In this document: piece after piece, positions 5,241 through 27,611 of the stretch | Position numbering within the stretch: the stretch's first letter is position 1 | Layout of the letters: the number at the start of each line of letters is the position of its first letter | NCBI GenBank assembly: GCA_040899905.1 | Contig: JBBDZX010000005.1 | Location: 698,199 to 762,198 of the forward strand | DNA length: 64,000 nt | Direction: 5' to 3' | Origin: Anaerolineales bacterium | Lineage (GTDB): Bacteria > Chloroflexota > Anaerolineae > Anaerolineales > E44-bin32 | Notes under the pieces: generated by a model | Told to the model about the DNA's origin: nothing | Database searches by the model: none | What the model saw: only the letters and a program-made list of their open reading frames with translations | Program-made: the position numbers and the translations under genes

Positions 5241-6320
5241 CTAACCAAAGGCGAATCGATAATATCTTCGCACGGGCAGTCGCTTCCACATCCACATCAA
5301 GATCAGTGGGCCCCCGAGACCCGCCAGGATCAATACCGCCAGGTAAACTAGCTGTGAGCCGAGGACCGCAGGTGTAAAGCGGTACATGATCACGGCTATG
5401 GAATAGGCGAAGGGAATATTCGCCAGATAGATTCCGAGTGAGTTTGCCCCGAGATAGGCCAGGTGCTTGGACATCGGAACCCGAGTCGCTGCGAATCCCA
5501 AGAAGCAAGGGGCAACGAGGGTGGCGTAGGTAATCCTGGCTATGCCCGGGTTATTCGGCCCCAGCCACTCCTGACCACTCCACCGCACAAGCAGCTCGTA
5601 TTCCACCAGGCTTAACGACAGCGTCGCGATGACTGCCCCCAGCAACCACCACCTCCTCCGCTGAATCCATTGCGAGGCTGCCTCGACATTCAGCCCTGCC
5701 ACGAGCCCCAGGCTGAAGTGCAGGATGCTCCCTGCGAAGATCCACCGCACGTTGTACTGGAAGATGAAACTCCAAATCGGGCCCTCCGCACCCATGAGAT
5801 AGAAGAACATGATGCTTTCGAAGCTGAGTTGAATGACCGCGGCACCCGCCAGGAAGAGCAAGGGTCTTGACTCCGCAATCCGGGCCAGTATCGGCGCCAA
5901 CAAGTACAGCTGCACAAGCACAACGAGATAGTAATAAGGATCCAGGATATCGTCGATCGATGAAGGGATTTTCCTCAAGAGGATATACCGAATCATGGTC
6001 CACAGAAGGAAGGGTACGAGAAGGACCTTGATCCGAGGCAGGACACTGTTCCAGGTAACACCCCCCGACTCACGCCGCGCCAGAAACGCAATGAAGAAGC
6101 CCGATACAAACAGAAATGCCGGTACCCCGAACGCGTCAAACTGGCGTGCGAGCATTAGGACATAGTACGCCAAACTTCCCAGTTGGTCGAAGTTGGGGAC
6201 GGCGACGTCCCGGTAGCGGTTCGTCCACTCGAACATTGCCTGCAGACCATACGCAGTTGCGTGATGAACCGGGACCATAAGCACTGCGAGTCCATTGAGA
6301 AGAAGAAGCCGTCGGGTCAT
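5241..6320 (-). CDS. Acyltransferase family 3 (OafA/YrhL-like) integral membrane O-acyltransferase
   Basis: About 10 predicted TM segments. N-terminal LNGLAVLMVPVHH-type motif typical of acyltransferase-3 proteins. ATG start. Confidence 0.75.
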   Translation of the reverse strand: MTRRLLLLNGLAVLMVPVHHATAYGLQAMFEWTNRYRDVAVPNFDQLGSLAYYVLMLARQFDAFGVPAFLFVSGFFIAFLARRESGGVTWNSVLPRIKVLLVPFLLWTMIRYILLRKIPSSIDDILDPYYYLVVLVQLYLLAPILARIAESRPLLFLAGAAVIQLSFESIMFFYLMGAEGPIWSFIFQYNVRWIFAGSILHFSLGLVAGLNVEAASQWIQRRRWWLLGAVIATLSLSLVEYELLVRWSGQEWLGPNNPGIARITYATLVAPCFLGFAATRVPMSKHLAYLGANSLGIYLANIPFAYSIAVIMYRFTPAVLGSQLVYLAVLILAGLGGPLILMWMWKRLPVRRYYRFAFG

Positions 6321-6438
6321 TCCACGATCCCCATGCCGGACGTGCCATACGTTGGAACAGGTACACGTTCAGAGGAGTCGGCCAGGGGTGTGGCCGACCG
6401 GCGCCCACCCTGCCTCGTCCCGGAAGGTATTCTGCAGG

Positions 6439-7836
6439 TCAACCTGGAGCTCGCCGTCCGATGTTCGCCGGGAAGATCGCTGCCTGCTCATCTGGAGTCA
6501 GTTCACAGGACGGCGCATTGAATTCCGGGCGGCGGATAACCGTGCTGCGGAGCATTTGGAAGTACCGCGGATTTGCCAGCAGATCCAGAAACCTATGGTA
6601 CTTCCTGTGATTCTCAAAGAAGTCCCCTGACAGGATGAAGTGCCCGGCTGCCATTGCATCCTCGTGTTCCTTGTACTCACCGAAGAACGGGAGCGCCTCC
6701 GCGAACGACACAGAGTGGGGGTTGTAGAACAGCGATATCAGGCGATACACGAAGCCGTAGGCTCCATTGATCTGCTCATAGGCTCTCGCGAGCGAACCAT
6801 TCTGATCCAGACTCCCGTTCGAGATCATTTCGACCAGGGCATCCGCTACCAGCCACGCACTCTTCATCGACAAGAAGATCCCACTCGAAAAGATCGGATC
6901 GATGAATCGGCTCGCGTCGCCAATCAGGGCGAACCGGGGGCCATACTTGACGCTGGACTCGTAGGAGTAATCCCCTTCTACGAAGACCTCCATCGCGATC
7001 TCCGCTCCCGCCAGGATCTCCGACACGGCCGGTGACTCGCCAATTTCGTCGCGATACACCGCTAGCTTCCAATCGCCCTTCCCATTGCCGGCCAGCTCGC
7101 GTTTCCGCTCCCGAAGGTAGCTGCTTTCCACCACGACACCAACCGTCACCTTTTCCGCCGAGAGGGGAAACACCCAAATCCAGCCCCGCTTCTCTCCACC
7201 CAGGTAGAAGATCAGCGAAGCACCCTGCTCAAGGCCAAAGGTCATCCTCTGAACTCCGGTCCAATGCGTCCACAAGGCGGTGCGCTCAAACCCGCGATTG
7301 GTCGTTCTCCACTTGTTCCTTACAGCCATGAACGTATCTCTTCCGCTGGCATCGATCAGAAACCGAGCCCTGATGACGCGCTCGCCCCCGCGAGGTCCGA
7401 CCGTTAATACCCGAACCTCGCCCGCTGATGTCTCAAAGTCAACATCCTTGACTCGAGTTCTCTCCCGAACTTCGGCCCCGCGGTTCCGGGCGTTTTCCAG
7501 TAGGAGCGTGTCGAACTGTTTGCGATCGACCTGGAAGGACAAGAAGGTCTCATCTTCGATGACATGGTTGAAGCACCAACTGGTCGCGCGCTGCCCGTCC
7601 CGGGTGGCGAATCGAACGGCAGGCTTGCGCACGAACGTCCGCTTCATCTCGTCAAGTACTCCCAGCTCATTGAGTATTCCGTAGCAGAATGGGAGAAGCG
7701 ATTCTCCGACATGCTCCCGGGGGAACTTCTCCTTTTCGAGAACTACCACCTTAAGCCCATTCTTCGCCAGGATGGAGGCAGCCGTCGTGCCCGCAGGTCC
7801 GCCGCCGATGATGGCCACATCCACGCTGCCTGTCAT
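6439..7836 (-). CDS. FAD-dependent halogenase-like oxidoreductase (paralog 1)
   Basis: VDVAIIGGGPAGTTAA (GxGxxG), FPREHVGESLLP, GWIWVFPL (WxWxIP variant with F for I), candidate Lys in FVRKPAVRF, and GDASRFIDPIFSSG. Start at ATG 7836 preceded by GGGAGA; the longest ORF starts at GTG 7860. Confidence 0.75.
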   Translation of the reverse strand: MTGSVDVAIIGGGPAGTTAASILAKNGLKVVVLEKEKFPREHVGESLLPFCYGILNELGVLDEMKRTFVRKPAVRFATRDGQRATSWCFNHVIEDETFLSFQVDRKQFDTLLLENARNRGAEVRERTRVKDVDFETSAGEVRVLTVGPRGGERVIRARFLIDASGRDTFMAVRNKWRTTNRGFERTALWTHWTGVQRMTFGLEQGASLIFYLGGEKRGWIWVFPLSAEKVTVGVVVESSYLRERKRELAGNGKGDWKLAVYRDEIGESPAVSEILAGAEIAMEVFVEGDYSYESSVKYGPRFALIGDASRFIDPIFSSGIFLSMKSAWLVADALVEMISNGSLDQNGSLARAYEQINGAYGFVYRLISLFYNPHSVSFAEALPFFGEYKEHEDAMAAGHFILSGDFFENHRKYHRFLDLLANPRYFQMLRSTVIRRPEFNAPSCELTPDEQAAIFPANIGRRAPG

Positions 7837-8032
7837 GTCCGTCTCCCTATCATGCGCCACCTCTTCGGCGACTCGCCGTTCGCCTGACCACTCCGACCAC
7901 AGGTACCATGCACGCGTACACCCTCATTGACCAACCCAACGTGCGGGCAAAGATCCATGACCCAGAGACTGCTCATCGCTGCGTACGAGGGCTCGTCTGT
8001 CAAACTCGGTAGCGAAGCGCCTCGGTAGGGGG

Positions 8033-8284
8033 TTAACTCTTGCTCTGCTTACGCTGTACGAGGGAACTCATTGCATTGATGGTCTCAAAATTCTCCGGCA
8101 CCACCTCGGTATCGTCGACCACCACCGAGAACTTCTCCTCGATGAACGCAACGAGACGCAGAATGCCGAGGGAATCGACAATCCCGCTTGCGATGAGGGA
8201 GTCTTCCCATGAGAGGGAAACATCCCCATCGGCCACCATAATATTCTGAACTATGAACTCTTCCAGAGCTTGGGATACATCCAT
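8033..8284 (-). CDS. DltC-like acyl/peptidyl carrier protein (carrier 1)
   Basis: About 83 aa. Phosphopantetheine site ASGIVDSLGILRLVAFIEEKF (D-S-L). AGGAGG lies 7 nt before the second ATG (8284). Confidence 0.8.
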   Translation of the reverse strand: MDVSQALEEFIVQNIMVADGDVSLSWEDSLIASGIVDSLGILRLVAFIEEKFSVVVDDTEVVPENFETINAMSSLVQRKQSKS

Positions 8285-8417
8285 TTCCATGCCTCCTGAT
8301 TTATGTTATACTAGGACGCACGCTCATTTGCGCGGCGGCTTTCGGTTTGTCCCGAGCGCCAACACGGGCCAAACCTGGACCAACCGATCAAGTGCAGTGC
8401 GGAGGGAGGGTAAGCGG

Positions 8418-9206: not shown

Positions 9207-9232
9207 GTTCTACCGTCATACGGTCCAGAACC
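9206..9232 (+). terminator. Imperfect hairpin directly after the 8418..9206 stop
   Basis: GGTTCTACCGT-CAT-ACGGT(CC)AGAACC, followed by only a weak T stretch (CTCGTTTCC). Confidence 0.3.
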
Positions 9233-9596: not shown

Positions 9597-10976
9597 CTAC
9601 CGGGGTCCCATCCACGCCTCGGTCGACTCCACGTCGGAATCGGCGTCCCAGATCGCGGCACGTTCCGGGTGGAAGCGCGAGCCGATCGGGATCGAGTATT
9701 CGTCTTCGCTCTCATAGGACCGTTCCCGCACCCCCTCTCGGCCAAGCAGTTTGCGCGCCGCCAGGACCCCCGGCGACGGCTGCCGCTCGAAGATCCTGCC
9801 GGCAAAGAGGTCCGTAATCAGATCGGTGTAACGGCTGTGCACGAACAACGCAAACGCTAGAGGGTGCTCCCAGAAGCAGTCGATCATGTCCTCCAGCACG
9901 TCGATACCGTGCTCCACACGCAACTGGTGGCCGCCGAACGGGTTCCGGCCGTTCCGGCCGACGCCGTTCAGGTAGTCGCGGATGAGCGGCGCGGCCAGCT
10001 GCGCCTCCTGCAGGGCGACCGCCAGGCCGAAGGAGAAGATCGGGTCGATGAAGCGATGCGAGTCGCCCAGGCAGAGGAATCCCTGGCCGGAGAACCGCCG
10101 CACCTGGTACGAGTAGTTGGGGATCACATGGACGTCTTCCGCCAGCTGGGCTGGTCCCGGAATCCGCCGGGACAGTTCGGGGTGCATTTCCCTCAGCTCG
10201 CGCAGGAAGAAGTCGCGCTTGCTCTCCTTCTTCTCCAGGAAGTACGCCGAGGGAACGACGATGCCGACGCTGACGATGTCTTCGTCCAGCGGGATGAACC
10301 AAGCCCAGTGGTATTTTTGCTTGTACAGGATGATCGTGTTGTCCGGGTGGTCCCGGCGTTCGCCGCCGCCGTCCCGCAGGGCTCCGGCTACCTGGGAGAA
10401 GACGGCGATTTGTTTGTCATAGGCGCCCAGGTACTTCGGGCCGGTAACCCCGCGCAAGTTGGCCAGCCAGGTCGCCTGGCCCGAGCAGTCCAGCAGCACC
10501 TCCGACTCGATGGCCTGCACCTTTCCGTCCGGCATCTGGACGGTCACCCCGCGCACCGTTCCCTCGTCGGAGACAATCGGCGCCAGGGCCCGGCCCTGCT
10601 CGAACCGGGCACCGTGGGCCAGCGCCTCGTCCAGCATCATCTTGTCGAAGTCACTGCGCCGAACCTGCCAGGTATCCCACTCAAAGAGATTCCAATTCTC
10701 GTCGCGACCGGTGACCGGGACGAACCATGTGCCGCGCGAGCTGCGACCGTACACCTTGACACCCTGCTTGCACGGGTGGCGGCGCCGGTACATCTCGGCG
10801 TCGAGTTTCAAGTCCCGCAACACCTTGCCCCCCGCCCCGGTCAGCGACTCCCCGATGTGGTACCGGGGGAAGGACTCCTTTTCCACGATCAGAGGGCGGA
10901 TCCCCTCCTGCAGCAGGAACATTGCCGCCGCCGCCCCTGCCGGGCCGCCGCCGACGATCACCACATCCGATTTCAT
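9597..10976 (-). CDS. FAD-dependent halogenase-like oxidoreductase (paralog 2)
   Basis: SDVVIVGGGPAGAAAA, FPRYHIGESL, exact WxWxIP (HWAWFIPL), candidate Lys in PCKQGVKVY, and GDSHRFIDPIFSFG. Its ATG overlaps the stop of the upstream adenylase (ATGA at 10973..10976). Confidence 0.8.
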   Translation of the reverse strand: MKSDVVIVGGGPAGAAAAMFLLQEGIRPLIVEKESFPRYHIGESLTGAGGKVLRDLKLDAEMYRRRHPCKQGVKVYGRSSRGTWFVPVTGRDENWNLFEWDTWQVRRSDFDKMMLDEALAHGARFEQGRALAPIVSDEGTVRGVTVQMPDGKVQAIESEVLLDCSGQATWLANLRGVTGPKYLGAYDKQIAVFSQVAGALRDGGGERRDHPDNTIILYKQKYHWAWFIPLDEDIVSVGIVVPSAYFLEKKESKRDFFLRELREMHPELSRRIPGPAQLAEDVHVIPNYSYQVRRFSGQGFLCLGDSHRFIDPIFSFGLAVALQEAQLAAPLIRDYLNGVGRNGRNPFGGHQLRVEHGIDVLEDMIDCFWEHPLAFALFVHSRYTDLITDLFAGRIFERQPSPGVLAARKLLGREGVRERSYESEDEYSIPIGSRFHPERAAIWDADSDVESTEAWMGPR

Positions 10977-12625
10977 CCAGACCTCCCTAGGGTCGCGCGG
11001 GCGTCACCCAGCCCGCCAAGCTGCCGCTCCGCCAGTTGTGAGCGGTCCACCTTGCCGCTCGATGTCTTGGGCAACTCTTCCAGGAACTCGAGGCTCTCGG
11101 GCACCATGTAGCGCGGCAATCGCTCCCGGCAATGGGAATCGAGATCGGCTGCGCTCACGCCGTTGTCGCCCAATCGCACCACATACGCCTTGATGCGACT
11201 TCCCACGAGTTCGTCCGGCACGGCCACGGCCACGGCCTCGCGAACGCCCGCGTGGCTGTAGAGAGCCGCCTCGATCTCCCCCAGCTCGATACGATAGCCG
11301 CGGCTCTTGACCATGTGGTCGCGCCGACCGAGGTAGCGCCAGGTCACGCCGTCTGCCTCCAGGCACACGACGTCGCCGGTTCGGTACGCCACCTCCTGCA
11401 CGTGGGGCTGCAAGGGGTTCGCCACAAATACCCCGGCGGTCTTGGGGCGGTCACCCCAATACCCCTGCGCCACGGTCGAACCGCGCACCCACAGCTCCCC
11501 CTCGCGGCCCGGCTCGTCGACCCGCTGGCCCGATTCATCTACGGCAAACACTTCCGTGTTCTCGCAGGCCCTGCCGATCGGCACCGGATGCTGGCGCTCA
11601 GGGTCCAGGTCGGCTGGACCCACCTGGTAGTACGTGCACACGTTGGTCTCCGTGGGGCCGTACAGGTTGTACAGCTCAACATGCGGGACCTTCGCCGCCA
11701 GCTTCCGCAGATATTTGATGGGAAAGACCTCGCCGGCGAAGAGGATCGTTCGCAGGGCGGAGAGGTCGTGGGCGTCCAGCCTCCCGTAGGTCACCATCAG
11801 AGTGAGCACGGAAGGCACCAAGTAGGTGAGGGTGATCCGCTCGTCGTGCAGGAGCTTCACCAGCCGCACCGGAAAAGTAGAAAGGCCCTCCGGAACCAGC
11901 ACCACTGTCCCGCCAGCCAGGAGGGTGGCAAAGATGTCGAGGGTCGAGAGGTCAAAATGCAGCGGCGCATGGCTGGTCACGCGATCGTCCGGGCCCATGC
12001 GGAACGTATCCACCGCCCAGCGCAGGAAGGTGAAGATCGTCCGATGGGAGATCATCACGCCCTTGGGTTCGCCGGTCGAACCGGAGGTGTAGAGGATGTA
12101 GGCAAGGTCCGTCTCAATGGTTCCGTCGTCCCCCAGGGGCGAGGCCTCGCCGCGGGCCACCTCGTCCCACGCAACGACTGTGCGCGCCCCCGGCCGAGGT
12201 GCTACCGGCAGAGGCTCTCCCAGCGGGCCGGCCTCGGTGAGGACGACAGCCTGCACCGGTGTTTCCTCGCGCAATAGCGCCTCGACCTCCGCGGCGCACT
12301 CTGCCGACGTCACGATCACTCGGATATCGCAATTGCGGGTGATGTACGCCAGCCGCGCCGCCGGCGCGCGGGCGTCCAGAGGGACGTACACGCCGCCGGC
12401 TTTCAGGATGCCGAACACGCTCAGTACCGAGGCGAGCGACTTGTGCAAGTAGATACCCACGCGATCCCCGCGCCGGACGGAGAGTTCGCGCAGGCTGCGG
12501 GCCAACTGAGAGCTCCGCCGGTCGAGTTCGGCGTAGGTCCACTGCCAGTCGCCGAAGCGCACGGCGATTTGGTCCCCGAAGCGGGAGGCTCCCTCCCGAA
12601 GGATGTGTTGGAGCAGATAGGCCAT
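10973..12625 (-). CDS. Stand-alone DltA-like amino acid adenylation enzyme (adenylase 2)
   Basis: A3 AYILYTSGSTGEPKGV, A4 HFDLSTLDIF (alpha-amino-binding Asp present), NLYGPTETNV, YRTGD, A8 GRRDHMVKSRGYRIELGEIE, LPRYMVP, A10 LPKTSSGKVDR. There is no condensation or carrier domain. Confidence 0.9.
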   Translation of the reverse strand: MAYLLQHILREGASRFGDQIAVRFGDWQWTYAELDRRSSQLARSLRELSVRRGDRVGIYLHKSLASVLSVFGILKAGGVYVPLDARAPAARLAYITRNCDIRVIVTSAECAAEVEALLREETPVQAVVLTEAGPLGEPLPVAPRPGARTVVAWDEVARGEASPLGDDGTIETDLAYILYTSGSTGEPKGVMISHRTIFTFLRWAVDTFRMGPDDRVTSHAPLHFDLSTLDIFATLLAGGTVVLVPEGLSTFPVRLVKLLHDERITLTYLVPSVLTLMVTYGRLDAHDLSALRTILFAGEVFPIKYLRKLAAKVPHVELYNLYGPTETNVCTYYQVGPADLDPERQHPVPIGRACENTEVFAVDESGQRVDEPGREGELWVRGSTVAQGYWGDRPKTAGVFVANPLQPHVQEVAYRTGDVVCLEADGVTWRYLGRRDHMVKSRGYRIELGEIEAALYSHAGVREAVAVAVPDELVGSRIKAYVVRLGDNGVSAADLDSHCRERLPRYMVPESLEFLEELPKTSSGKVDRSQLAERQLGGLGDARATLGRSG

Positions 12626-12642
12626 CGGCGTGCCTCTTGACC

Positions 12643-12849
12643 TCAGGCGCCCGCCCGCTCATGGGCGGCGGAGGACTTGCGGAGCGGTACAGTCATCCGG
12701 TTGGCCACCAGGGCAAAAACCATGATGATGGTGAAAGTCAGACCCGTCATGATGTTCATCGGCAGCCGGATCCATCCGACGCGCCCGAGCCCGGCGATGG
12801 TCTCCAACACGACTTTGTCCAACGGATCCCTATGCCACGGCACGAACAC
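12643..12849 (-). CDS. Possible small membrane protein (38-68 aa) between the dehydrogenase and adenylase 2
   Basis: Tail of ORF 12643..13401: ...DKVVLETIAGLGRVGWIRLPMNIMTGLTFTIIMVFALVANRMTVPLRKSS. It has one clear TM and high third-position GC. Candidate starts are GTG 12849 or ATG 12759. No family recognised. Confidence 0.3.
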   Translation of the reverse strand: MFVPWHRDPLDKVVLETIAGLGRVGWIRLPMNIMTGLTFTIIMVFALVANRMTVPLRKSSAAHERAGA

Positions 12850-12980
12850 TCCGTCGCGAATTGCGCCCCGCCCTTTCCCCCGTCTGCGGCGCGGAACCGA
12901 GGGGAATGATGTGCCAGGGGCCGGCGCCGGTCTGCGCGCTGGGCCTCGCGTCCATCTGGGAACGGTCACGACCTCCGGGT

Positions 12981-14126
12981 TCACAGGCCCAGCATCCGGG
13001 AGATGATCACCCGCTGAATGTCGGAGGTGCCCGAGTACAGGGTCCCACCGATGGCGTCGCGGACCTGTCGCTCGATTTCGAACTCGGTCATGTAGCCGTA
13101 GCCACCGTAGACCCGCAAGGCGTCCAGGCTGGACTGAAGGAAGGATTCGCTCAGATACAGCTTCGCCATAGCAGCTTCGACGACCGCGGACTTCCCGTTC
13201 TGTTTGAGCCACGCCACCTTGTACAGCAGCAGCCGAGCGGTCTCCAAGCGAACCTTCATGTCGGCGATCCGGTTGGACACGGACTGGAATTTGCCGATGG
13301 GCTGGCCGAACTGGCGCCGCTCGCGGGCATAGCGAATGCAGCCCTCCAACTGTCGTTCCATGGCGCCGATGTTGCCAGCCAGGATGCAGCTGCGCTCCCA
13401 CTCCATCGAGCTGTTAAACACCGTCAAGCCGGCGCCCTCGGCGCCCAATCTCGCTGAATCCGGGACGAAGCAGTCCCGCAGGATGATCTCGCTCATCGGC
13501 GAGGTCCGCAGCCCCATCTTGGAGATGTCGTTGCTGACGGAGAAGCCCTGGGCCTCCCGATCGACGAGGAAGGCGGTGATCCCGCCCCGTCCCAGCTCGG
13601 GGTCGAGTGTTGCAAATACAACGGCCAGATGGCAGATCGGTGCGTTGGTCGAGAAGGTCTTTACGCCGGAGAGAACATACCCGCCGTCGACCTTCTTCGC
13701 CCGCGCCCGCAGACTGGCCGTGTCGGATCCCGCGTCGGGCTCCGTCATCCCATGCGCCCCGATCAGGTCCCCGCGGCACAGCCCGGGCAGGTATCGTTCC
13801 TTCTGCTCCTCGGTCCCAAAGGTCTCAATCGGGTGCTGCACGCTCCACATCTGAGCATTGATGGCGAACACAAGCCCGAGGTCGGTACATCCGTAGCCCA
13901 GCCCTTCCATCACCAGCATCGTGGTGAGGATGTCTTCTCCGGCGCCGCCGAAGTCCGGAGACACGGGAAGCCCCAGAATCCCGAACTCGGCGCACTTGCG
14001 CCAGTTGTCCAGCGATAGTTCTCCGCGTCGATCCCGATCGATGACTTCGTCGTTGAGGTTGTCTTTGGCGAAGTCCACGACGGCCCGCTTGTAGGCATCT
14101 TGTTCCGGGCTCCAGGAGAAGTCCAT
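12981..14126 (-). CDS. Acyl-CoA dehydrogenase family flavoprotein (possibly acting on a carrier-bound substrate)
   Basis: MDFSWSPEQD start with GAGG 7 nt upstream. Typical ACAD blocks GAHGMTEPDAGSD and QFGQPIGKFQ. The C-terminal block reads LYSGTSDIQ instead of the usual YEGT. Confidence 0.9.
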   Translation of the reverse strand: MDFSWSPEQDAYKRAVVDFAKDNLNDEVIDRDRRGELSLDNWRKCAEFGILGLPVSPDFGGAGEDILTTMLVMEGLGYGCTDLGLVFAINAQMWSVQHPIETFGTEEQKERYLPGLCRGDLIGAHGMTEPDAGSDTASLRARAKKVDGGYVLSGVKTFSTNAPICHLAVVFATLDPELGRGGITAFLVDREAQGFSVSNDISKMGLRTSPMSEIILRDCFVPDSARLGAEGAGLTVFNSSMEWERSCILAGNIGAMERQLEGCIRYARERRQFGQPIGKFQSVSNRIADMKVRLETARLLLYKVAWLKQNGKSAVVEAAMAKLYLSESFLQSSLDALRVYGGYGYMTEFEIERQVRDAIGGTLYSGTSDIQRVIISRMLGL

Positions 14127-14443
14127 CACCGCACCTCGAGGCGCTTCCACCACCGGCACCCGCTCATCGGGGCGTCCGGGTTGTCCAGCAAAGAGACCGG
14201 TCTTCTCATCTGGCCATCTGGTGGCGGCCGCTCGCCGCCGCAGCGTTCAGATCCGGACGGGTGAACCCCGCAGGACCGCGGCGCCCGGCGTTCACAAGGG
14301 GCGTATCTGCGGCGGGCGCCGGCCCAGTTTCGGGAAGATCCGCAGCACAAGCCCCGCCGGTCCCTGCAGCACCCCAAACCCCAAGAGCAACGAGGAGGAT
14401 TCTGCCCAGGGCAGGGCTTTCGTCCGTGCGGCGCTCGGGACGG

Positions 14444-17389
14444 TTAGCTCGTTGGTTCCTCGCTCGGTCCGAAGAGAGGAATCACGTCCTGCCGTTCGTG
14501 CAAGGCCTGATACAACCTCTCCGCGAGCAGCCGGTGTCCGGCCGCGTTCGGATGCTTATCCCAGTAGGCCACAACCAGCGACTCTACGTCCTGATGATCG
14601 AAGGCGTCGGATAGATCCAGAACAAGGAAACCCGATTCCTCGGCCAGGCGGGCGAGGTGCGTCACGGTCTCTTCCCGCAGCGGATTCTCCAAAGTCGGTA
14701 CGAAGATCCAAATGGGGAGAACACCATTTGCGCGTGAGGTTTCCACGACACGGCGATAGGTCCACGCGAGGATTTCGCTCCCTATTGGCTGGAGGTGTCT
14801 TTCGTTCTCCACCATGGTGGCGCCGGCCTCTCCTCCGGCCTGGTGGGCGAGTTCCATCAAGTCGGCGTAGGGGAGCTCCGCCCCCACGGATATCCGGTCT
14901 GCCAGATACCTCGCGGTGTCCGATTCCTCACGCTGATGGGCGATGAAGAAGAGGGCATCGGGTTGAAAGGAGACCCCCTTTTGTTCCAGGACCATCAGAT
15001 TCTGGATCGCAGAGTAGCCTGGAACGGCGAAGTTCAGGATTTCGTATCTGGCATAGCCACTCCCGCCATTCTCACGATTCAGGCGGTCCTCCAACAGCGA
15101 CTCGAAAACTTCGTCATTGGCGACGCCCGACCCCATCACAAAGGAGGGGCCGGTCAGGGCGACGCGGTAGGTGTCCGCTTGTGGGATCAGCTCGTAATCC
15201 CGATCCCGCATCCCCCAGCGGTTGGTGCTCAACAAGGCTCCCTGGAAGTTGATCGTCGTCGAGGGGACGAGCTCTACCATCAGGTTGTCGCCGGTTTGTC
15301 GCGCCACCTCCGTCTCCATGATGGACGGCCAGTCCGATGGCCGTTTCGTGTAAATCTCCCACAGCTGAGAGTTGAATCGATCTACCCCGACCAGGTCTTC
15401 GTAGTAGCCGCGCTGGAGCAGCACGGCCTCCCGCTCGCTCAGTCGGTTCACCGTCAGATCGCCAAGGAACGCCTGAACTGGGCCACCCAGGCGGCTCTGT
15501 ATTGCCGGATGGCCCAGCAGGAGCAGGAAGATGAGCGGTACCCCCGTGGCCGCAAAGGATCTCACCAGAGGGGCCTGCTTTCGCTTCGCCCCGAGGCCCA
15601 TTTCGCCTCGCGCGCTCGCCCAAATCGCCACCCCCATCACAGCCATGAGGGCCAAGAACGCGAACACCAGTACGGCGATGTCGCCAGGAGTGATCTGAAC
15701 GACGGACAACAAGGAAATCCAATCCTGAATCGAATCGCCGCCCCACAGCGCCCACAAAACCGCCATGATTGTGAAGGTGCTTGCCGTCCGGATCGCCAAC
15801 GCAACCGTTTCGCCAAGCGACCTGGCACGCCGGCCCAGGGCTCGATCTCGGCCGCGCCTGGCCTCATAGAGCATGTTGGCGATGATCAGCAGGGTCAGGA
15901 TCAGCCAGAACAAAACATCCTGGGCGGTCAGGAGAAACGAACCGCGGAGCCAGAACCATTGGTACGCATGCAAAAACCAGGTCAGAAAGAAGACGATCGC
16001 AGTTGCCAGGACCATGCTGGTAGTGGGGCCCCACTGCCGGATTCGAAAGTAGACGGGATAGTAAAACACCTTCAACATAAAGTCTTTCCAATAGATGTTG
16101 ATCCGGCGCCATATGTTAGTGAAGCTACTGGCCAGGAAATATAGGTGATGGGTTTCCGGCAGGTTGAAACCGAATAGGTGTAAGAGCCCAATGATCAAAT
16201 GAAACTGACCGGAAATACGAACATAGAGGCCAAAGTTCGCGACGAGATAGCGCACAAGCTCCGTCGCATTTGTGACTTCCTGGGGGCTGAGCATGACGTA
16301 GTAGTTGAGGTATCGATATAGAAGAAGATGGACGATCCCCCGGAACATCCACCGCAGCCCTTTTTGATAGATCGCATGCTGCTCGTCATCATAGTAGGTT
16401 CGTCGGAATGTGCCGTAGTCGACGATCGGGAAGAAAGGGAAGACGACGTTAGGCAACAGAAAGAAGTACGAAAGCGTGCTAGCCAGCGTCGGTTTCGCCT
16501 TTCCATGCCGGAGATCATACATATAGACGATCAGGCGAAACATGAACATCGAGGCCAGAATCGGCCAGATCACTCCCAGCCCGGATGCCTCGATCCAGCC
16601 GGCTCGTATGACCGCCAGCAGAACCCCAGCGGTAAGGAGGAGAAAAACTCGAAGCCCATAGGCCACCGGAAGATGAGCGAGGCCGACCAGGCCTAGCCCG
16701 ATCGCAAGCAGCCAAACAGAGTTGGCGAGCCCCAGGATCCCCACCAGCGCGGCCAGGGAAAGAAGCAGGAAGTAGGGAAGCCGATAGTGGGCAGGCAGCA
16801 GATAGTGAATCAGAAAGCCATACACTACCAGTGGAATGATATTGAGGTAGACAGCTTGAGTTTCCAGGTGGAATAGGCGGACGACTAGTCCTAGGAGGCT
16901 AAGCTGAAGCAGGATGCTCAGAAACGTGCCCACCTTCAGCCTGTCCAAGCTAACCTGCCCGAGCCAGGTCCGTACCTTCCGCCAATCCCACGGTTCCGCT
17001 GCAACGGCGCTGAGGGACAGCACGGTGACACAGGTCGAGGCCAGAACCGCAAGCTTCGCTGGCCATTCCGGCAGACCATTGATCACCAGCAAGTCGGCGG
17101 CGAATGCGGCTGCGAGAACCGCAACCCCAACCAGCAACCACTCGCCAATCGGGCGCAGGCCAACAGGCGAAACCAGGACGAGGCCTGCTCCCAGAATGGC
17201 GAACCCACTCAGCGCAACGGAGACCTGCTTCGGGCCTATGCCTGACTGCTCGCCAATCCTCAGCAAATCAGCAGCGAACGCCAACGCCATGACGGCGGCG
17301 CCGATCCCTACGAGACTGAAGGGTACAAGTCTCTCCCAGTTAATGATGGTTAGTCTGCGCAGCACCGATCGGCCCTTCTTCCCCGACAA
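14444..17389 (-). CDS. Fusion protein: N-terminal polytopic extension + MBOAT (DltB/AlgI-like) core + C-terminal extracytoplasmic SGNH (DltD/AlgJ-like) domain
   Basis: 981 aa. MBOAT blocks MFMFRLIVYMYDLRHG, GLLHLFGFNLPETHH, FTNIWRRINIYWKDFMLKVFYYPVYF and LTWFLHAYQW. The C-terminal domain has YRVALTGPSFVMGSG (Ser block) and YWDKHPNAAGHRLLAE (Asp/His block). Confidence 0.85.
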   Translation of the reverse strand: MSGKKGRSVLRRLTIINWERLVPFSLVGIGAAVMALAFAADLLRIGEQSGIGPKQVSVALSGFAILGAGLVLVSPVGLRPIGEWLLVGVAVLAAAFAADLLVINGLPEWPAKLAVLASTCVTVLSLSAVAAEPWDWRKVRTWLGQVSLDRLKVGTFLSILLQLSLLGLVVRLFHLETQAVYLNIIPLVVYGFLIHYLLPAHYRLPYFLLLSLAALVGILGLANSVWLLAIGLGLVGLAHLPVAYGLRVFLLLTAGVLLAVIRAGWIEASGLGVIWPILASMFMFRLIVYMYDLRHGKAKPTLASTLSYFFLLPNVVFPFFPIVDYGTFRRTYYDDEQHAIYQKGLRWMFRGIVHLLLYRYLNYYVMLSPQEVTNATELVRYLVANFGLYVRISGQFHLIIGLLHLFGFNLPETHHLYFLASSFTNIWRRINIYWKDFMLKVFYYPVYFRIRQWGPTTSMVLATAIVFFLTWFLHAYQWFWLRGSFLLTAQDVLFWLILTLLIIANMLYEARRGRDRALGRRARSLGETVALAIRTASTFTIMAVLWALWGGDSIQDWISLLSVVQITPGDIAVLVFAFLALMAVMGVAIWASARGEMGLGAKRKQAPLVRSFAATGVPLIFLLLLGHPAIQSRLGGPVQAFLGDLTVNRLSEREAVLLQRGYYEDLVGVDRFNSQLWEIYTKRPSDWPSIMETEVARQTGDNLMVELVPSTTINFQGALLSTNRWGMRDRDYELIPQADTYRVALTGPSFVMGSGVANDEVFESLLEDRLNRENGGSGYARYEILNFAVPGYSAIQNLMVLEQKGVSFQPDALFFIAHQREESDTARYLADRISVGAELPYADLMELAHQAGGEAGATMVENERHLQPIGSEILAWTYRRVVETSRANGVLPIWIFVPTLENPLREETVTHLARLAEESGFLVLDLSDAFDHQDVESLVVAYWDKHPNAAGHRLLAERLYQALHERQDVIPLFGPSEEPTS

Positions 17390-17453
17390 TTGCTCTGGTC
17401 AACTGGCGGCTGTGCAATTGCCCCTTCCGCCGGTCGCATTTGACCCAGTGGCG

Positions 17454-19016
17454 TCAATCCCGGAGCTCCATTAGTTTTTGGTAGTCGATCTTGTCCGTGG
17501 AAGTCTTCGGCAACGCCGGCTCGAAAACAAACAGGTCCGGGACCATGTAGATGGGTAAGTTCTCAGCACAGAAGCGCTTTAGCTCGATGATGGAGGGGCG
17601 CTTCTCTGGCTCCTTACAACTAATGTATGCCTTGACCCGCACCCCGTTCTCGTCGTCGGGCAATGCGATCACCGCCGCCTCTTTCACCGCCGAGTGGCGA
17701 TACAGTCCGGCCTCGATCTCGCCCAACTCAACTCGATACCCCCGCTTCTTGACCATCCGATCCCGCCGTCCGACGTAGAGGTAATCGCCATTCGCATCCT
17801 CGACCACGATATCGCCCGTCTTGTACCAAAGTTGACCCGACGAGTCTGTCAGAAAGGCAGTGGCGGTCCGTTCTGGCAGATTCCAGTAGCCCTGCATGAC
17901 CCCGGGACCGGCGATGCACAATTCGCCCTCCTGTCCGGCCGATACCGCTTGCCCCTGCTCGTTCACCACGATCGCCTGGCAGTGAGAGCACGCCTTCCCG
18001 ATAGGATAGGGCTGGGTTCGCTCTTCAGGGATGTGGCCCGGAATCTCATGGTAGGTGCAGACGTTGGTCTCGGTTGGGCCATACAGGTTGAAGAAACTTG
18101 GTCCAGGCAGGAGATTCGTGAGGGCCCGGAGATGCTTGACGGGAAACACCTCGCCTGCGAAGAGCACCCTTCGCAACGCGGCGTAATCGTGCTGTTGCAT
18201 TCTGCCGTACTGCGCCAGCATGCTCAAGACGGAGGGTGCCGAGTACCAGCTCGTGATTCGTCGCTCCGCGATGGTTGCGGCGAGGCCGATCGGATCCTTC
18301 GCAGTTTCGTCCGCGATTAGGACCAGGGCCGCGCCGTGCTTCATCGGTACGTATAGATCCAGAATGGACAGGTCGAAGTGGAAGGGTGCGTGCGAAGCGA
18401 AGCGCTCTCCGTCGGCCGGCTGGAACACCTCCGAGCACCAATCGACGAAGCTCAGCGCGTTGCGATGCGAGAGCATCACGCCTTTCGGCTTCCCGGTCGA
18501 CCCCGAGGTATACAGGACGTAGGCCAGATCGTCCGGTGACACCTCGGCCGAATCCGACACCGGCGCCGGATCGGTAGCCTGCAGTTCGTCGAGAGCTCGA
18601 CTCAACGGTACTCCGCCGCCAGTCGCCTCGACGACCAACAGCGACGCCGGCGCACCGAGGCTGGCAAGTTCCGTGTGCAGCCTGTCTTCAAAGCGGCTCT
18701 CCACCACCACGATCCGTACCTGGCAATCGTTCAGAATGTACGCGTTTCGGGCAGCCGGCGCGGCAGCATCCACCGGCACATACGCGGCACCGCACTTCAA
18801 AACGCCAAAGATCGCCGCAACCGCATCGATGGATTTGGGCAGATACAGCCCTACCCGGTCGCCTCGACTCACGCCAGCATGTTGAAGCCTGTCTCGCAGG
18901 CGATCCGAAAGGTGCGCAAGTTCGCGAAACGTGATCCGATGGCCCTCGCCGTCTTCGACGGCGAGTTGATCGGGACGGCCCTGCGCGGAGCGCTCCAGAA
19001 AGTGGTGGATGAGCAT
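17454..19016 (-). CDS. Stand-alone DltA-like amino acid adenylation enzyme (adenylase 1)
   Basis: A3 AYVLYTSGSTGKPKGV, A4 HFDLSILDLY, NLYGPTETNV, YKTGD, A8 GRRDRMVKKRGYRVELGEIE, LPIYMVP, A10 LPKTSTDKIDY. The ATG lies 9 nt after the carrier-2 stop. Confidence 0.9.
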   Translation of the reverse strand: MLIHHFLERSAQGRPDQLAVEDGEGHRITFRELAHLSDRLRDRLQHAGVSRGDRVGLYLPKSIDAVAAIFGVLKCGAAYVPVDAAAPAARNAYILNDCQVRIVVVESRFEDRLHTELASLGAPASLLVVEATGGGVPLSRALDELQATDPAPVSDSAEVSPDDLAYVLYTSGSTGKPKGVMLSHRNALSFVDWCSEVFQPADGERFASHAPFHFDLSILDLYVPMKHGAALVLIADETAKDPIGLAATIAERRITSWYSAPSVLSMLAQYGRMQQHDYAALRRVLFAGEVFPVKHLRALTNLLPGPSFFNLYGPTETNVCTYHEIPGHIPEERTQPYPIGKACSHCQAIVVNEQGQAVSAGQEGELCIAGPGVMQGYWNLPERTATAFLTDSSGQLWYKTGDIVVEDANGDYLYVGRRDRMVKKRGYRVELGEIEAGLYRHSAVKEAAVIALPDDENGVRVKAYISCKEPEKRPSIIELKRFCAENLPIYMVPDLFVFEPALPKTSTDKIDYQKLMELRD

Positions 19017-19025
19017 CGTCGCGGG

Positions 19026-19301
19026 TTACAGCTTCGACTGGACCAGCTGTTCCATGTCGGAAATGGTGTTGAAGTAATCGACCGTTGTCTCGTGCGCTTC
19101 AATACCGATTTGAAATCGCTTTTCGAGAAACAGCACCAAGTTGACCGTGGCGAGTGAGTCGAGGATCCCCCCGGTGATGAGGGGAGTTGTGTCGGTCAAT
19201 GCTGACGGGTCTTCCCCCGCAAGGAACTCGTCAAGGATGTACTTCTTGATCGCCTGCCCGATCCCCTCCCTCGTCTGCTTTTCTCCATCCACCTCGCTCA
19301 C
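19026..19301 (-). CDS. DltC-like carrier protein (carrier 2)
   Basis: 91 aa, with ITGGILDSLATVNLVLFLEKRF (D-S-L). GTG start preceded by GGAGAGGAGG. Confidence 0.85.
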   Translation of the reverse strand: MSEVDGEKQTREGIGQAIKKYILDEFLAGEDPSALTDTTPLITGGILDSLATVNLVLFLEKRFQIGIEAHETTVDYFNTISDMEQLVQSKL

Positions 19302-19513: not shown

Positions 19514-20953
19514 TTACGCGTTCTTCAGCACCCCTTCCCGTGAGTCGTTCAGCCATGAAGCCAAGCCCACCGTCCTCTGCAGGACGAGGTGCAGGCCAGA
19601 TGCTGCAAAGATGACCAGTACGGCATCGACCGGCAATCGATACCGGACTTGGACCCAGGAGAGGATGTGAATCAGGCTGTAGCCAAGGACGAACAGATAG
19701 AGCAGCACAACCGCTGCAGACAGCGTCCCGAATCGGACCACCCAGCCCCGCTCGCGTCCATGGAGAAACGGCCGCGCCAAACCAAGCAGCATGAAGGGAA
19801 GGAAAAGCCCAAACGATACTGTACGTGCGACATTGCTCACGCTGCTAGAGTCCTGACTCGGAAGGAAGTTGAAGTACAGGGGAACACGACTCACGCTGAG
19901 CCGCAGGTAGCGAGCCGGTTCATCGATGACAAAACGCAAGCCCCGTTTCAGCAGTTCCGCGTCCAGGTCGGCCTCGCTGAGGGCCCTTAGTTCGTGCGGG
20001 ATCATTTCGCGATAGCGCCCATCCATTTCCGACGCCGGAACAAAGCGAGTTCCGTAGAACGGGTGATTGCTGAGGAACATCGCAAATCCAGCGTTCGTGT
20101 TGAGCAGCAGGAACCTGTCAAAGCGCGAATAGTTGAAGACCGTCACAGGAAGAATGGCCAAAGCGCATACGCATAAAGAAACCAATGCCGGGCCTACGGC
20201 GGGACGGATCGAACCGCTTGCACGTCGGGCTGCGGCCAACAACCACACCAGGAGCAGAGGGATCATGAGCAGAAACACCTGCCTCAACAGCACCGCTGCC
20301 GCCAGGGATACCCCTAGCCCCACGCTCAGGGCCCTGCGTGCTCGAGAAGTCCTCGCCCTCGCCAAACGCAGGACCAGATAGATTGACAGCAAGACGGCCG
20401 CAATGTAGAAAGGCTCGGTCATCAGCGTTCCGGAGTAGTAAACGAAGTAGGCGTAGACCGCGGTCACCGACGCGGCGAGCAGCGGGACACCGAGTCGGTC
20501 CAGGGCCGGCGCCTCTTGCACAGGGGGGACAGGGACCTGCGTCGCTCCCTCCCGGTCCTTAACTTGTCGAATTCGAGCAGTCGGGGAGCCCCCGAAGATC
20601 AGATCCGCGATCTTGTAGGCCAGAAGGGGATGCGCCACGCCAACAACAACGGCCTGGATCAGGCGGGCGACAAGGGGATGCGGCCCGAATAGTCCATACA
20701 CCGCCGTGAGATAGAGCGTATACAGATAACTCCAGTGTGCGGTCGGCTCGCCCGCGGCCGTCGCCGGCCACCAATCCTCCGAGAAGCTGAACCCATGCCC
20801 CCCAAGGACTCGGAGCGCCAGCGTGTGGTAGGAAACCTGATCTGCGGTGCCCGGAAGTGCTTCCACGTGGTTTCCCAGGTACACGCCGGCACCAATACGC
20901 AGAAGGACCGATAGGCAGATAGCGATCAGGAGATCGAGGCGTGGAGTTCGCAT
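19514..20953 (-). CDS. GT-C fold glycosyltransferase (ArnT/PMT-like, polyprenyl-phosphate-sugar dependent)
   Basis: Polytopic membrane protein. N-terminal loop GTADQVSYHTLALRVLGGHGFSF resembles the acidic first-loop motif of GT39/GT83 enzymes. ATG 20953 lies 2 nt after the sulfotransferase stop. Confidence 0.7.
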   Translation of the reverse strand: MRTPRLDLLIAICLSVLLRIGAGVYLGNHVEALPGTADQVSYHTLALRVLGGHGFSFSEDWWPATAAGEPTAHWSYLYTLYLTAVYGLFGPHPLVARLIQAVVVGVAHPLLAYKIADLIFGGSPTARIRQVKDREGATQVPVPPVQEAPALDRLGVPLLAASVTAVYAYFVYYSGTLMTEPFYIAAVLLSIYLVLRLARARTSRARRALSVGLGVSLAAAVLLRQVFLLMIPLLLVWLLAAARRASGSIRPAVGPALVSLCVCALAILPVTVFNYSRFDRFLLLNTNAGFAMFLSNHPFYGTRFVPASEMDGRYREMIPHELRALSEADLDAELLKRGLRFVIDEPARYLRLSVSRVPLYFNFLPSQDSSSVSNVARTVSFGLFLPFMLLGLARPFLHGRERGWVVRFGTLSAAVVLLYLFVLGYSLIHILSWVQVRYRLPVDAVLVIFAASGLHLVLQRTVGLASWLNDSREGVLKNA

Positions 20954-20955
20954 GA

Positions 20956-21969
20956 TCACCAATCGAGGTTGTCGCCGTAGCCGAGGTCCATGAGCTGGCG
21001 GCCTGCAACGGCCTTAAACATGAGCTTGCGGGTCGATGGCCACTGTTGCCAGTGACCCGTTGGCTGAAAACTCTTGGGCTTCGGCAGCCAGCGCCATTCC
21101 ACTGTCTCACCAGGTTTTGTCAGCTTGGATGAACCGATGACTTTGATACTCTCGATCTGATCGAAGGGGAACTTATCCGCATCCAGGCCAGCATGGCGAC
21201 AGAGCGCCCTTACGAACTTGCTCGGGTCGGAGACAGCTTCCTCAAACCGCGCGAAGAAGTACTGATCCTTTCGAGATCCTTGGAAGGCACCCTTGGCGCT
21301 CAGAACTGCGTCCGCGCTCCGTCTCCACCTGAGGCAGGCTTGCAAGAACGTCAGCTTCGGCCAGGTTCGGAGGGTCGAGTGAACGACGTCACGGCCGTCT
21401 CTCACCAGCAACACGAGGTACTCATGTGGAAACATAGAGTAGAAGTGCGTGATGTATTGAACCGAAGGACTCTTTACCAGCAGTCTGCTGGAGGGAGGGC
21501 TGTCTTCATACAGATAGGCAAGCAGTGAGGCTCCGAACAGCGGCAGGAAGTCTCCCTCCGCCATCTTGCCCAAATTGGGTTTGTACTCAAGCAGGAAACC
21601 CTTTGCCAAACCCATCACTCGCGGCGACTGCATCAGCGCGGGGAGCTCCCACAACTGATGGGGATAGGGATGGATTTCCGGATGCAGTCGTAGAAGCTGA
21701 CCCAAGTAGACGGTTCCGGAGCGCGGCATCATTCCGTGGACCATGATGGCCGGAGGACGGTCCGTGCCGCGTATCGTCTTTGCGGCCCGGATCACGAGGT
21801 CGCTCACTGGGGGGGGCTGCATGGCCGTCGTAAAGCCCCTGCGCTCGAAGAAGTAGTTCACATACCTTCGCAAGTCACGCCACAAGACCGCAGCGCGATT
21901 GAGCGATGACCTGGGGGAGGCAACATCCCGTGGACCCGGGATCGCTTTCAGCAGACTTGCGTCGCTCAA
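20956..21969 (-). CDS. PAPS-dependent sulfotransferase
   Basis: 5'-PSB loop HGMMPRSGTVYLG and 3'-PB motif LLVRDGRDVVHS. The start is uncertain: TTG 21969, or an internal Met (MQPPP). Confidence 0.8.
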   Translation of the reverse strand: MSDASLLKAIPGPRDVASPRSSLNRAAVLWRDLRRYVNYFFERRGFTTAMQPPPVSDLVIRAAKTIRGTDRPPAIMVHGMMPRSGTVYLGQLLRLHPEIHPYPHQLWELPALMQSPRVMGLAKGFLLEYKPNLGKMAEGDFLPLFGASLLAYLYEDSPPSSRLLVKSPSVQYITHFYSMFPHEYLVLLVRDGRDVVHSTLRTWPKLTFLQACLRWRRSADAVLSAKGAFQGSRKDQYFFARFEEAVSDPSKFVRALCRHAGLDADKFPFDQIESIKVIGSSKLTKPGETVEWRWLPKPKSFQPTGHWQQWPSTRKLMFKAVAGRQLMDLGYGDNLDW

Positions 21970-27583: not shown

Positions 27584-27611
27584 TTCGAACCACTCCCAGA
27601 TGGACCAGCCA

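Follow-up and report, generated by a model that had tools for sequence, protein, structure and literature searches.

A putative carrier-fed MBOAT–SGNH fusion acyltransferase with a predicted proline-derived donor in a glycan cluster of an Anaerolineales bacterium

Introduction

Two architectures have been described for the acylation of bacterial envelope polymers, a membrane-bound O-acyltransferase (MBOAT) working with a separate SGNH protein and a fused AT3–SGNH protein (PMC12148441). A 64,000-nucleotide (nt) stretch of DNA from an Anaerolineales bacterium (assembly GCA_040899905.1, contig JBBDZX010000005.1, positions 698,199 to 762,198; the window below) encodes a small carrier protein (carrier 2), a stand-alone adenylation enzyme (adenylase 2) and a protein of 981 amino acids (aa) that joins an MBOAT-like membrane part to an SGNH-like domain. 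The locus raised the question of what group such a single-chain system would transfer, from which donor and onto which acceptor. Judging from sequences and models, we consider it probable that a single polypeptide, fed by a carrier, transfers a proline-derived acyl group, probably (halo)pyrrole-2-carbonyl, across the membrane onto a surface glycan.

Organization of the locus

The three genes follow one another on the minus strand: carrier 2 (19301..19026), adenylase 2 (19016..17454) and the 981-aa open reading frame (ORF; 17389..14444). They are separated by 9 nt and 64 nt, respectively, and the gene order and the 9-nt gap recorded in the initial annotation were reproduced by the ORF coordinates. 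Carrier 2 starts with GTG, preceded by GGAGG 5 nt upstream, and the third-position GC content of the three genes (0.72–0.74) is in line with that of the neighbouring genes. A gene for an enzyme of the acyl-CoA dehydrogenase (ACAD) family is located 284 nt downstream of the fusion gene. The features of this part of the window, all on the minus strand, are as follows.

19026..19301, minus: carrier protein 2, 91 aa; phosphopantetheine Ser in GGILDSLATV; Pfam PP-binding, 17.4 bits
17454..19016, minus: adenylation enzyme 2, stand-alone, 520 aa, predicted to be L-proline specific; TIGR01733, PltF match and specificity code
14444..17389, minus: fused MBOAT–SGNH protein, 981 aa; ORF, homologues and AlphaFold2 (AF2) model
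16940..17389, minus: N-terminal extension, clade-specific, residues 1 to ~150; helices from the AF2 model
15488..16867, minus: MBOAT-fold membrane domain, residues ~175–634; Foldseek and hhalign
16097–16099, minus: Asn N431 of WRRIN; hhalign pairing and conservation
15968–15970, minus: H474 of the catalytic-His motif FLHAYQW; hhalign pairing and conservation
15392..15409, minus: motif GYYEDL (G661-Y662-Y663-E664-D665-L666), candidate acyl-tyrosine shuttle; invariance and low model confidence
14495..15322, minus: predicted extracytoplasmic SGNH domain, residues ~690–965; Pfam PF13472, fold matches and positive-inside analysis
15143–15145, 15032–15034 and 14552–14560, minus: SGNH Ser749, Asn786 and Asp944-x-His946, respectively
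12981..14159, minus: prolyl-carrier dehydrogenase of the ACAD family, 392 aa; AnaB/PigA matches

The membrane domain of the fusion protein resembles the MBOAT fold

The AF2 model of the 981-aa protein was a single coherent chain with a mean predicted local distance difference test score (pLDDT) of 87.2 and a predicted TM-score (pTM) of 0.86. When it was compared with the PDB by Foldseek, the top fold matches were DltB structures (6BUG_C/8JEM; E ~1e-5, ~440 columns) with a target-normalised TM-score (TMt, for the membrane part normalised to DltB) of 0.54–0.58, followed by HHAT (7Q1U) and, lower down, DGAT1. The family was also aligned by hhalign with six genes annotated by PGAP as 'MBOAT family O-acyltransferase' on plasmid records (classical MBOATs below), which gave a probability of 96.5% and an E value of 8e-10 over 292 columns (query residues 246–567). 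By both comparisons the protein appears to represent a divergent MBOAT branch, detectable only by profile–profile or fold comparison.

In the hhalign alignment, WRRIN (427–431) pairs with WRRWH, which puts N431 opposite the His of RRWH, and FLHAYQW pairs with LWHGASW, with H474 opposite the universal catalytic His of WHG. N431 and H474 are each present in 125/125 sequences of the family alignment, to which all invariance counts given here refer. The initial reading of RRIN in the place of RRWH, with the second His motif kept, was thus confirmed. N431 precedes H474 by 43 residues, the expected MBOAT spacing of the second polar residue being ~30–45. Since Asn431 is invariant, it is regarded as functional rather than as a trace of decay. 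Asn or Asp is usual at the first polar position in eukaryotic MBOATs (GOAT Asn307/His338, HHAT Asp339/His379; PMC10213974); hence, the His-to-Asn change departs from the bacterial consensus only. On alignment, Asn431 appears to set the family apart from the AlgI/PatA/DltB-type consensus of bacteria, not from the MBOAT superfamily.

The initial annotation had placed ~290 residues of additional membrane helices in front of the MBOAT core. Extra helices are indeed present, but family lengths, profile alignments and fold alignments all gave a truly extra part of ~150–170 residues. Most family members have 830–900 aa and align from query residue ~150, i.e., without the extension; the hhalign alignment begins with query residue 246 opposite residue 73 of the classical MBOATs, and the fold alignment to DltB covers 436–449 columns versus the 414–419 residues of DltB. 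The extension, with four transmembrane (TM) helices predicted by AF2 (7–43, 53–73, 79–97 and 109–129), is typical of the Chloroflexota clade.

The linker and the SGNH domain

Counts of Lys and Arg residues suggested that the loops 504–528 (seven) and 590–607 (four) are cytoplasmic and the loop 548–570 (none) is external. Residues 631–981, including the SGNH domain, are predicted by the positive-inside analysis to lie outside. Two TM helices separate the last profile-aligned segment from the start of the SGNH part, and the same number precedes the FxYxxF motif in classical MBOATs. The loop pattern and the equal helix count both agree with an outward-facing SGNH domain, an orientation which the initial annotation had proposed to check.

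Residues 749–954 matched Pfam Lipase_GDSL_2 (PF13472) with 32.0 bits versus the cutoff of 32.9, and the fold matches of the SGNH part comprised TesA and many GDSL esterases (TMt 0.6–0.75). S749 (in GPS), G753, G755, D944 and H946 (in WDKH) are invariant in the 125 homologues, and N786 is found in 123 of them. The Ser of block I, the Asn of block III and the Asp/His of block V were all located. Block V reads D-x-H and not D-x-x-H, a spacing that resembles the AlgX/AlgJ motif. The GDSL-type folds bear out the C-terminal SGNH-like domain that had been noticed in the sequence, and the invariant S749/D944/H946 show its catalytic triad to be intact.

Between the membrane and SGNH domains lies the motif GYYExL, whose residues G661, Y662, Y663, E664 and L666 each occur in 125/125 homologues. 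A pLDDT below 50 was confined to residues 1–3 and 662–669; the latter, the sole internal segment of this kind, behaves as expected for a mobile arm. GYYExL belongs to the flexible linker that immediately follows the last TM helix on the outer side, topologically where classical MBOATs carry FxYxxF. All six classical controls end in a C-terminal FxYxxF, while the fusion has no free C-terminus at this point. In known systems the FxYxxF shuttle motif is periplasmic and lies at the MBOAT C-terminus or on DltX, and the passage of the acyl group from the MBOAT His to the invariant outward Tyr of this 'acyl shuttle' and then to the SGNH Ser has been shown for PatA/PatB and summarised for Dlt (PMC12148441). 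By analogy, Y662 or Y663 of GYYExL may be the acyl-shuttle tyrosine.

Full-length homologues are widespread

The database search for the same architecture, suggested in the initial annotation, retrieved full-length MBOAT–SGNH proteins from hundreds of independent assemblies. The 120 best homologues share 61–91% identity with the query at 95–99% coverage; all have 940–1000 aa and they come from independent ENA, JGI, NCBI and Logan assemblies. At E<=1e-30 there were 1090 representatives (one per 50%-identity cluster), and among contigs of one genome per species relatives were found in at least 494 species genomes, isolates of Mesorhizobium and Pseudothauera included. The 80 best loci comprise Chloroflexota, Acidobacteriota, Gemmatimonadota, Pseudomonadota (Mesorhizobium species, Accumulibacter, Pseudothauera rhizosphaerae, Woeseia), Rhodothermales, Planctomycetota, Verrucomicrobiota, Eisenbacteria and Binatia. 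The Mesorhizobium protein is called 'SGNH/GDSL hydrolase family protein' by NCBI, and some members are labelled DltB or AlgI by JGI.

An assembly or frameshift error joining two genes would be a trivial explanation of the fusion, but nothing that speaks for it was found. Because full-length homologues occur in so many independent assemblies, isolate genomes among them, this origin was ruled out and its probability is practically nil; the single coherent AF2 chain (pTM 0.86) speaks against it as well. The AF2 fold, the hhalign result, the intact triad and the full-length homologues together show that the MBOAT–SGNH fusion is real. Three loci carry two tandem paralogous MBOAT–SGNH genes beside one carrier gene (L017 7233-12676, L054 4155-10502, L077 9306-15643).

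The donor side points to proline

Carrier 2 scored below the NCBIfam cutoffs of the DltC models (29 and 22 bits versus 68 and 52). Its best NCBIfam match was ACP_for_OlsHI ('ornithine lipid biosynthesis acyl carrier protein'; 107 bits versus a cutoff of 130). This match was rejected as a functional lead, since the OlsH/OlsI paper gives the acyl carrier protein no role (PMC12493201) and the match shows carrier-subfamily relatedness only. Going by such relatedness, the carrier subfamily may be shared among amino-acid-linked surface or lipid pathways.

Adenylase 2 matched TIGR01733 above the cutoff (390 bits), and the DltA models of NCBIfam gave 308–311 bits versus cutoffs of 476 and 560. Its best single-domain match in the PDB was PltF (6O6E), an L-proline--[L-prolyl-carrier protein] ligase, with 337 bits as compared with 223–236 bits for DltA. 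The second adenylase of the window (adenylase 1) also matches PltF (325 bits). High scores with LgrA were rejected as a clue to specificity, as they are sums over two A domains. The specificity code was read by alignment to GrsA-PheA, whose sequence reproduced the canonical code DAWTIAAICK. Both window adenylases read DLLYLALVCK. All nine aligned (visible) positions were identical to those of PltF 6O6E, and DltA 7VHV differed at most positions. Adenylase 2 retains the Asp of FDxS, which binds the alpha-amino group. Among 54 cassette adenylases of other loci, 43 read DLLYLALVCK and the remaining ones differ at one position. Adenylase 2 is predicted to be specific for L-proline.

A predicted prolyl-carrier dehydrogenase and halogenase-like enzymes accompany the fusion

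In the PDB, the window ACAD was closest to AnaB (4IRN; 452 bits, E 2e-134) and then to PigA (5ZW0; 321 bits); the NCBIfam scores were 428.7 bits for PigA, versus an equivalog cutoff of 500, and 389 for RedW, versus 650. The Mesorhizobium orthologue had the same top PDB matches (AnaB 387 bits, PigA 329 bits). The chemistry of acyl-CoA dehydrogenases requires a thioester substrate, so oxidation would have to precede the transfer. As an AnaB/PigA-type dehydrogenase belongs to the conserved cassette described below, the transferred group should be an oxidised proline and not a free aminoacyl group.

Downstream of the ACAD gene, the window encodes two halogenase-like enzymes together with adenylase 1 and carrier 1:

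10973..12625, minus: adenylation enzyme 1, second proline-type, 550 aa; code DLLYLALVCK; PltF 325 bits
9597..10976, minus: flavin-dependent halogenase-like enzyme 1, 459 aa; WxWxIP-type motif HWAWFIPL; Pfam Trp_halogenase
8033..8290, minus: carrier protein 1, 85 aa, paralogue of carrier 2 (phmmer E 1.6e-11); start and ribosome-binding site checked; NCBIfam matches of the acyl carrier protein type
6439..7860, minus: flavin-dependent halogenase-like enzyme 2, 473 aa; GWIWVFPL; Pfam Trp_halogenase 94 bits; NCBIfam CmlS-like 203 bits

Halogenase 1 matched, in this order, 5BVA (246 bits), 8ZOP and 3NIX, and then 5BUK, PltA and CmlS. 5BVA is Bmp2, and 5BVA, 5BUK and PltA halogenate pyrrolyl-S-carrier substrates. 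Halogenase-like genes were also found beside the cassette in loci of Chloroflexota, Gemmatimonadales, Chthoniobacterales, Rhodothermales, Binatia and Pirellulales. Judged by these similarities, the predicted halogenases would favour a pyrrole at least where they are present.

The cassette is conserved and lies in glycan clusters

The window proteins were scored against the six-frame ORFs of 81 related loci, with thresholds of at least 480 bits for adenylase-2-type proteins and at least 350 bits for the ACAD, and the counts were made for the 40 loci in which the fusion gene is flanked by 6 kb or more on either side. Of these 40 loci, 37 had a carrier-2-type gene, 33 an adenylase-2-type gene, 32 an ACAD gene and 31 the complete set. 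Where the set was complete, the three genes share the strand of the fusion gene in nearly all loci and are mostly its direct neighbours. The usual order in Proteobacteria is MBOAT–SGNH, carrier, adenylase and ACAD, with overlapping or near-overlapping stops and starts, as in Mesorhizobium muleiense (locus L046: MBOAT–SGNH 9722-12502, carrier 12499-12759, adenylase 12768-14330, ACAD 14330-15478). Because the carrier gene stands beside the fusion gene in 37/40 loci, a carrier-protein donor is strongly implied, carrier 2 being the cognate one of the fused acyltransferase.

In the window, the cassette lies in a ~35-kb, almost unbroken minus-strand glycan cluster. The cluster also encodes GT2 and GT4 proteins, a Wzy-like protein, a GT-C-like membrane protein, a hexapeptide acyltransferase, an AT3 acyltransferase, a B12/radical-SAM enzyme, a phosphodiesterase, two stand-alone SGNH proteins, a carbamoyltransferase, a sulfotransferase and a methyltransferase. 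No ORF of the window is longer than 981 aa, which leaves no room for a polyketide synthase (PKS) or nonribosomal peptide synthetase (NRPS) megasynthase. In other genomes, too, the cassette is flanked by polysaccharide genes: Wzm/Wzt, GT1, PMT_2, SGNH and carbamoyltransferase in Chloroflexota; Wzx, GT4s, pyruvyl transferase and Bac_transf in Mesorhizobium; and Wzx in Woeseia. Two window genes recur in such surroundings:

19514..20962, minus: polytopic membrane protein, 482 aa, probable GT-C (PMT_2-like) glycosyltransferase; homologue in locus L001 with PF13231
26501..27625, minus: stand-alone SGNH protein, 374 aa (SGNH374); Pfam PF13472 37 bits

The 482-aa protein itself had no Pfam match; its homologue in L001 (260 bits) carries PF13231 (PMT_2), and the gene recurs beside the cassette in Chloroflexota. 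Homologues of SGNH374 (245–341 bits) were found in the Chloroflexota loci L001, L007, L009, L010 and L018.

Proposed mechanism and its weak points

The fused architecture, the motifs, the conservation of the cassette and the affinities to proline- and prolyl-dehydrogenase-type sequences are directly supported. The order of the steps, the oxidation state, the tyrosine shuttle and the acceptor are what we infer from them. In the cytoplasm, adenylase 2 would activate L-proline and load it onto carrier 2. The AnaB/PigA-type flavoprotein would then oxidise the prolyl thioester, either to the pyrroline-carboxyl or, as we think more likely, to the pyrrole-2-carbonyl form, and in the source organism the flavin-dependent halogenases may halogenate the carrier-bound group. 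The carrier would dock on the cytoplasmic face of the MBOAT domain, where H474 with N431 would drive the acyl group through the membrane. Its outward-facing acceptor would probably be Y662 or Y663 of GYYExL, from which the group would pass to SGNH Ser749 and finally to a hydroxyl of the polysaccharide or glycoconjugate made by the ~35-kb cluster.

Several observations weigh against this scheme. No MBOAT was found in the 981-aa protein by Pfam (even at E<=10, the gathering score of PF03062 not being reached) or NCBIfam, nor did PDB sequence searches with the protein alone or with a 61-sequence family profile return one, and the assignment is based on the predicted structure and the profile comparison. 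Among known structures, hydrolases and thioesterases come closest to the SGNH domain, rather than PatB, AlgX or DltD, and GYYExL differs from the FxYxxF consensus at the first position. The ACAD is nearest to AnaB and falls below the PigA and RedW equivalog cutoffs, and its sequence does not separate the two-electron from the four-electron enzymes; AnaB halts at the two-electron pyrroline product. Most cassette loci have no halogenase, and in L008, L049, L052 and L062 only the carrier gene was found within 10 kb. In the literature searched, we found no glycan with a pyrrole-2-carboxyl ester. The substrate, its oxidation state, the acceptor and the shuttle residue are deduced from sequence, predicted structure and gene neighbourhood.

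Alternative explanations

The window genes may be compared with a true Dlt system, in which the fusion would be a compact DltB plus DltD placing D-alanine or another unmodified amino acid on a polymer. The order carrier–adenylase–MBOAT resembles dltCAB, DltB is the nearest solved fold, carrier 2 retains a weak similarity to DltC (29 bits) and the adenylase keeps the Asp of FDxS. The adenylase code, however, equals that of PltF and differs from that of DltA at most positions, the DltA and DltC models remain under their cutoffs, a prolyl-carrier dehydrogenase is conserved (32/40 loci), and there is neither a separate DltD nor a DltX microprotein. We consider Dlt-type aminoacylation very improbable. 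Of the Dlt-like system driven by an aminoacyl carrier that the initial annotation had envisaged, the carrier-fed, single-chain MBOAT–SGNH layout stands, and the D-alanyl chemistry does not, given the PltF code, the sub-cutoff DltA and DltC scores and the conserved dehydrogenase. Another reading is a cassette handling unoxidised or two-electron-oxidised proline (an L-prolyl or 1-pyrroline-5-carboxyl group), with the window halogenases serving carrier 1 and the AT3 acyltransferase. It would suit an ACAD nearer to AnaB, a two-electron oxidase (452 bits), than to PigA (321), the lack of halogenases in most cassettes, and the position of the window halogenases next to adenylase 1 and carrier 1, not carrier 2. 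In L007, on the other hand, adenylase 2 and the fusion protein are encoded on either side of a halogenase gene, and in L027, L068 and L077 halogenase-like genes stand directly beside the carrier-2-type or fusion gene; moreover, a pyrroline thioester is a reactive imine and would be less plausible as a stable decoration. We regard this variant as unlikely.

The fusion could also act as an export or release device, its SGNH domain hydrolysing the exported (halo)pyrrolyl group to free a diffusible pyrrole metabolite, or its acceptor could be a lipid or a protein. Of the SGNH folds, those of TesA and other thioesterases and esterases come closest, the halogenases resemble 5BVA and PltA, known from small-molecule bromo- and chloropyrrole pathways, and the PMT_2-like GT-C neighbour could suggest a glycoprotein or lipid-linked acceptor. 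Such functions fit poorly with a cassette found inside polysaccharide clusters of unrelated phyla, among Wzx, Wzy, Wzm/Wzt, glycosyltransferases and pyruvyl transferase. Every characterised bacterial MBOAT/SGNH pair that PMC12148441 names has a polymer as its acyl acceptor. We judge release, or a lipid or protein acceptor, to be improbable, and prefer the transfer of an oxidised proline-derived group onto a surface glycan.

Relation to known systems

As in Dlt, an adenylase would load a small carrier from which an MBOAT draws the acyl group for an SGNH enzyme to finish the reaction outside, and DltB is the closest fold. Unlike in Dlt, MBOAT and SGNH are one polypeptide with the candidate shuttle GYYExL inside the linker, the adenylase has a proline code, a dehydrogenase would act on the carrier-bound group before the transfer, and the first conserved His is Asn. 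None of the Dlt components DltA, DltC, separate DltD and DltX was recognised in the window system, and the gaps next to the operon showed no DltX-like ORF. Most occurrences of the family are in polysaccharide clusters of diderm phyla and Chloroflexota, and given this setting a teichoic-acid acceptor is unlikely.

The PatA/PatB, AlgI/AlgJ/AlgX, WssH/WssI and PatA1/PatB1 systems share the homologous MBOAT core and the His-to-Tyr-to-SGNH-Ser logic (PMC12148441). They differ in using acetyl-CoA, separate polypeptides and a C-terminal FxYxxF; here, the MBOAT runs on into the SGNH domain, a carrier gene is adjacent and RRIN replaces RRWH. OatA and OafA, in turn, are alike in combining a membrane acyltransferase domain, a linker and an extracytoplasmic SGNH domain in one polypeptide, but their membrane domain is AT3, whereas here it has the MBOAT fold. 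Only two architectures being described in PMC12148441, the MBOAT–SGNH fusion is a third combination, in a single-chain layout otherwise known only for AT3–SGNH enzymes such as OatA. In the full-text literature searched we found no description of a carrier-fed MBOAT–SGNH fusion. DltB is the only known MBOAT not using acyl-CoA (PMC10213974), and the family would add a second carrier-fed one.

The donor side resembles the pyrrolyl cassettes (PltF/PltL/PltE/PltA, RedM/RedO/RedW, PigI/PigG/PigA, Bmp1-4) and AnaC/AnaD/AnaB in having a proline adenylase with the PltF code, a small carrier and an ACAD, and some loci of the window type carry halogenase-like enzymes of the 5BVA/PltA group. The pyrrolyl cassettes feed PKS/NRPS or small-molecule assembly; here there is no PKS/NRPS, and the partner is an MBOAT–SGNH protein in glycan clusters. 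By its sequence affinities, the window system appears to combine a PltF/PltL/PltE-type proline cassette with an MBOAT/SGNH transmembrane relay.

A bolder generalisation, which we put forward tentatively and regard as possible rather than likely, is that pyrrole-2-carbonyl esters are placed on a surface polysaccharide or glycoconjugate by bacteria of at least eight phyla, cultured Mesorhizobium among them, and are halogenated in the source organism and some others. The enzyme would be the first known natural MBOAT–SGNH fusion and the second carrier-dependent MBOAT, with the shuttle in the linker. If true, this would be a class of glycan modification not known so far, and its halogenated form a natural organohalogen bound to a polymer. 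The predicted oxidised and sometimes halogenated proline decoration would alter surface hydrophobicity, ultraviolet absorbance and resistance to enzymes. The family is widespread: hundreds of species of soil, sludge and marine phyla encode it, and databases annotate it only as 'SGNH/GDSL hydrolase' or 'hypothetical'. Cultured bacteria with the cassette, namely Mesorhizobium muleiense, M. amorphae, M. wenxiniae and Pseudothauera rhizosphaerae, make the prediction directly testable, and the family offers a natural single-chain system for trapping the proposed acyl-His/Tyr/Ser relay.

Other features of the window

A second proline arm is encoded in the window (5241-12625, 26501-27625). It consists of adenylase 1, carrier 1, halogenase-like enzyme 2, the stand-alone SGNH protein and an AT3 acyltransferase:

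5241..6320, minus: AT3-family membrane acyltransferase, 359 aa; Pfam Acyl_transf_3 76.7 bits

The AT3 gene co-occurs with a carrier-1-type gene in L007, L008 and L018, and the cassette of Chloroflexota relatives (L007, L008, L009, L018) again has carrier-1-type, AT3 and SGNH374-type genes as neighbours. From this co-occurrence, the AT3 protein may be the acyltransferase of the second arm, working with carrier 1, and a carrier-fed AT3 route is hinted at. AT3 enzymes are thought to use acyl-CoA, and a carrier-fed one would be unusual.

The operon is tightly packed except for long non-coding gaps on either side of the ACAD gene, 12626-12980 (355 nt) and 14160-14443 (284 nt), in which no carrier gene or convincing ORF was found. 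The sole plus-strand gene within the cluster (8253-9206) encodes a protein of 317 aa with a hydrophobic segment near the N-terminus and a Ser/Thr/Pro-rich linker; Pfam and NCBIfam returned nothing for it. A NusG paralogue and a LuxR-type response regulator (35482-36132, 36461-37354) mark the upstream end of the cluster. Specialised NusG/RfaH-like paralogues often head such operons as antiterminators.

Two direct repeats were noticed in the cluster. In the first (21612-21665 / 23675-23728), 54 nt from inside the sulfotransferase gene are repeated (96%), and the copy overlaps the listed GTG start (23715) of an AlgX-like SGNH ORF. The second (22010-22081 / 23761-23832) is intergenic and 72 nt long (90%). 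A local duplication has probably left the two repeats behind, and the true start of the AlgX-like gene may lie further downstream.

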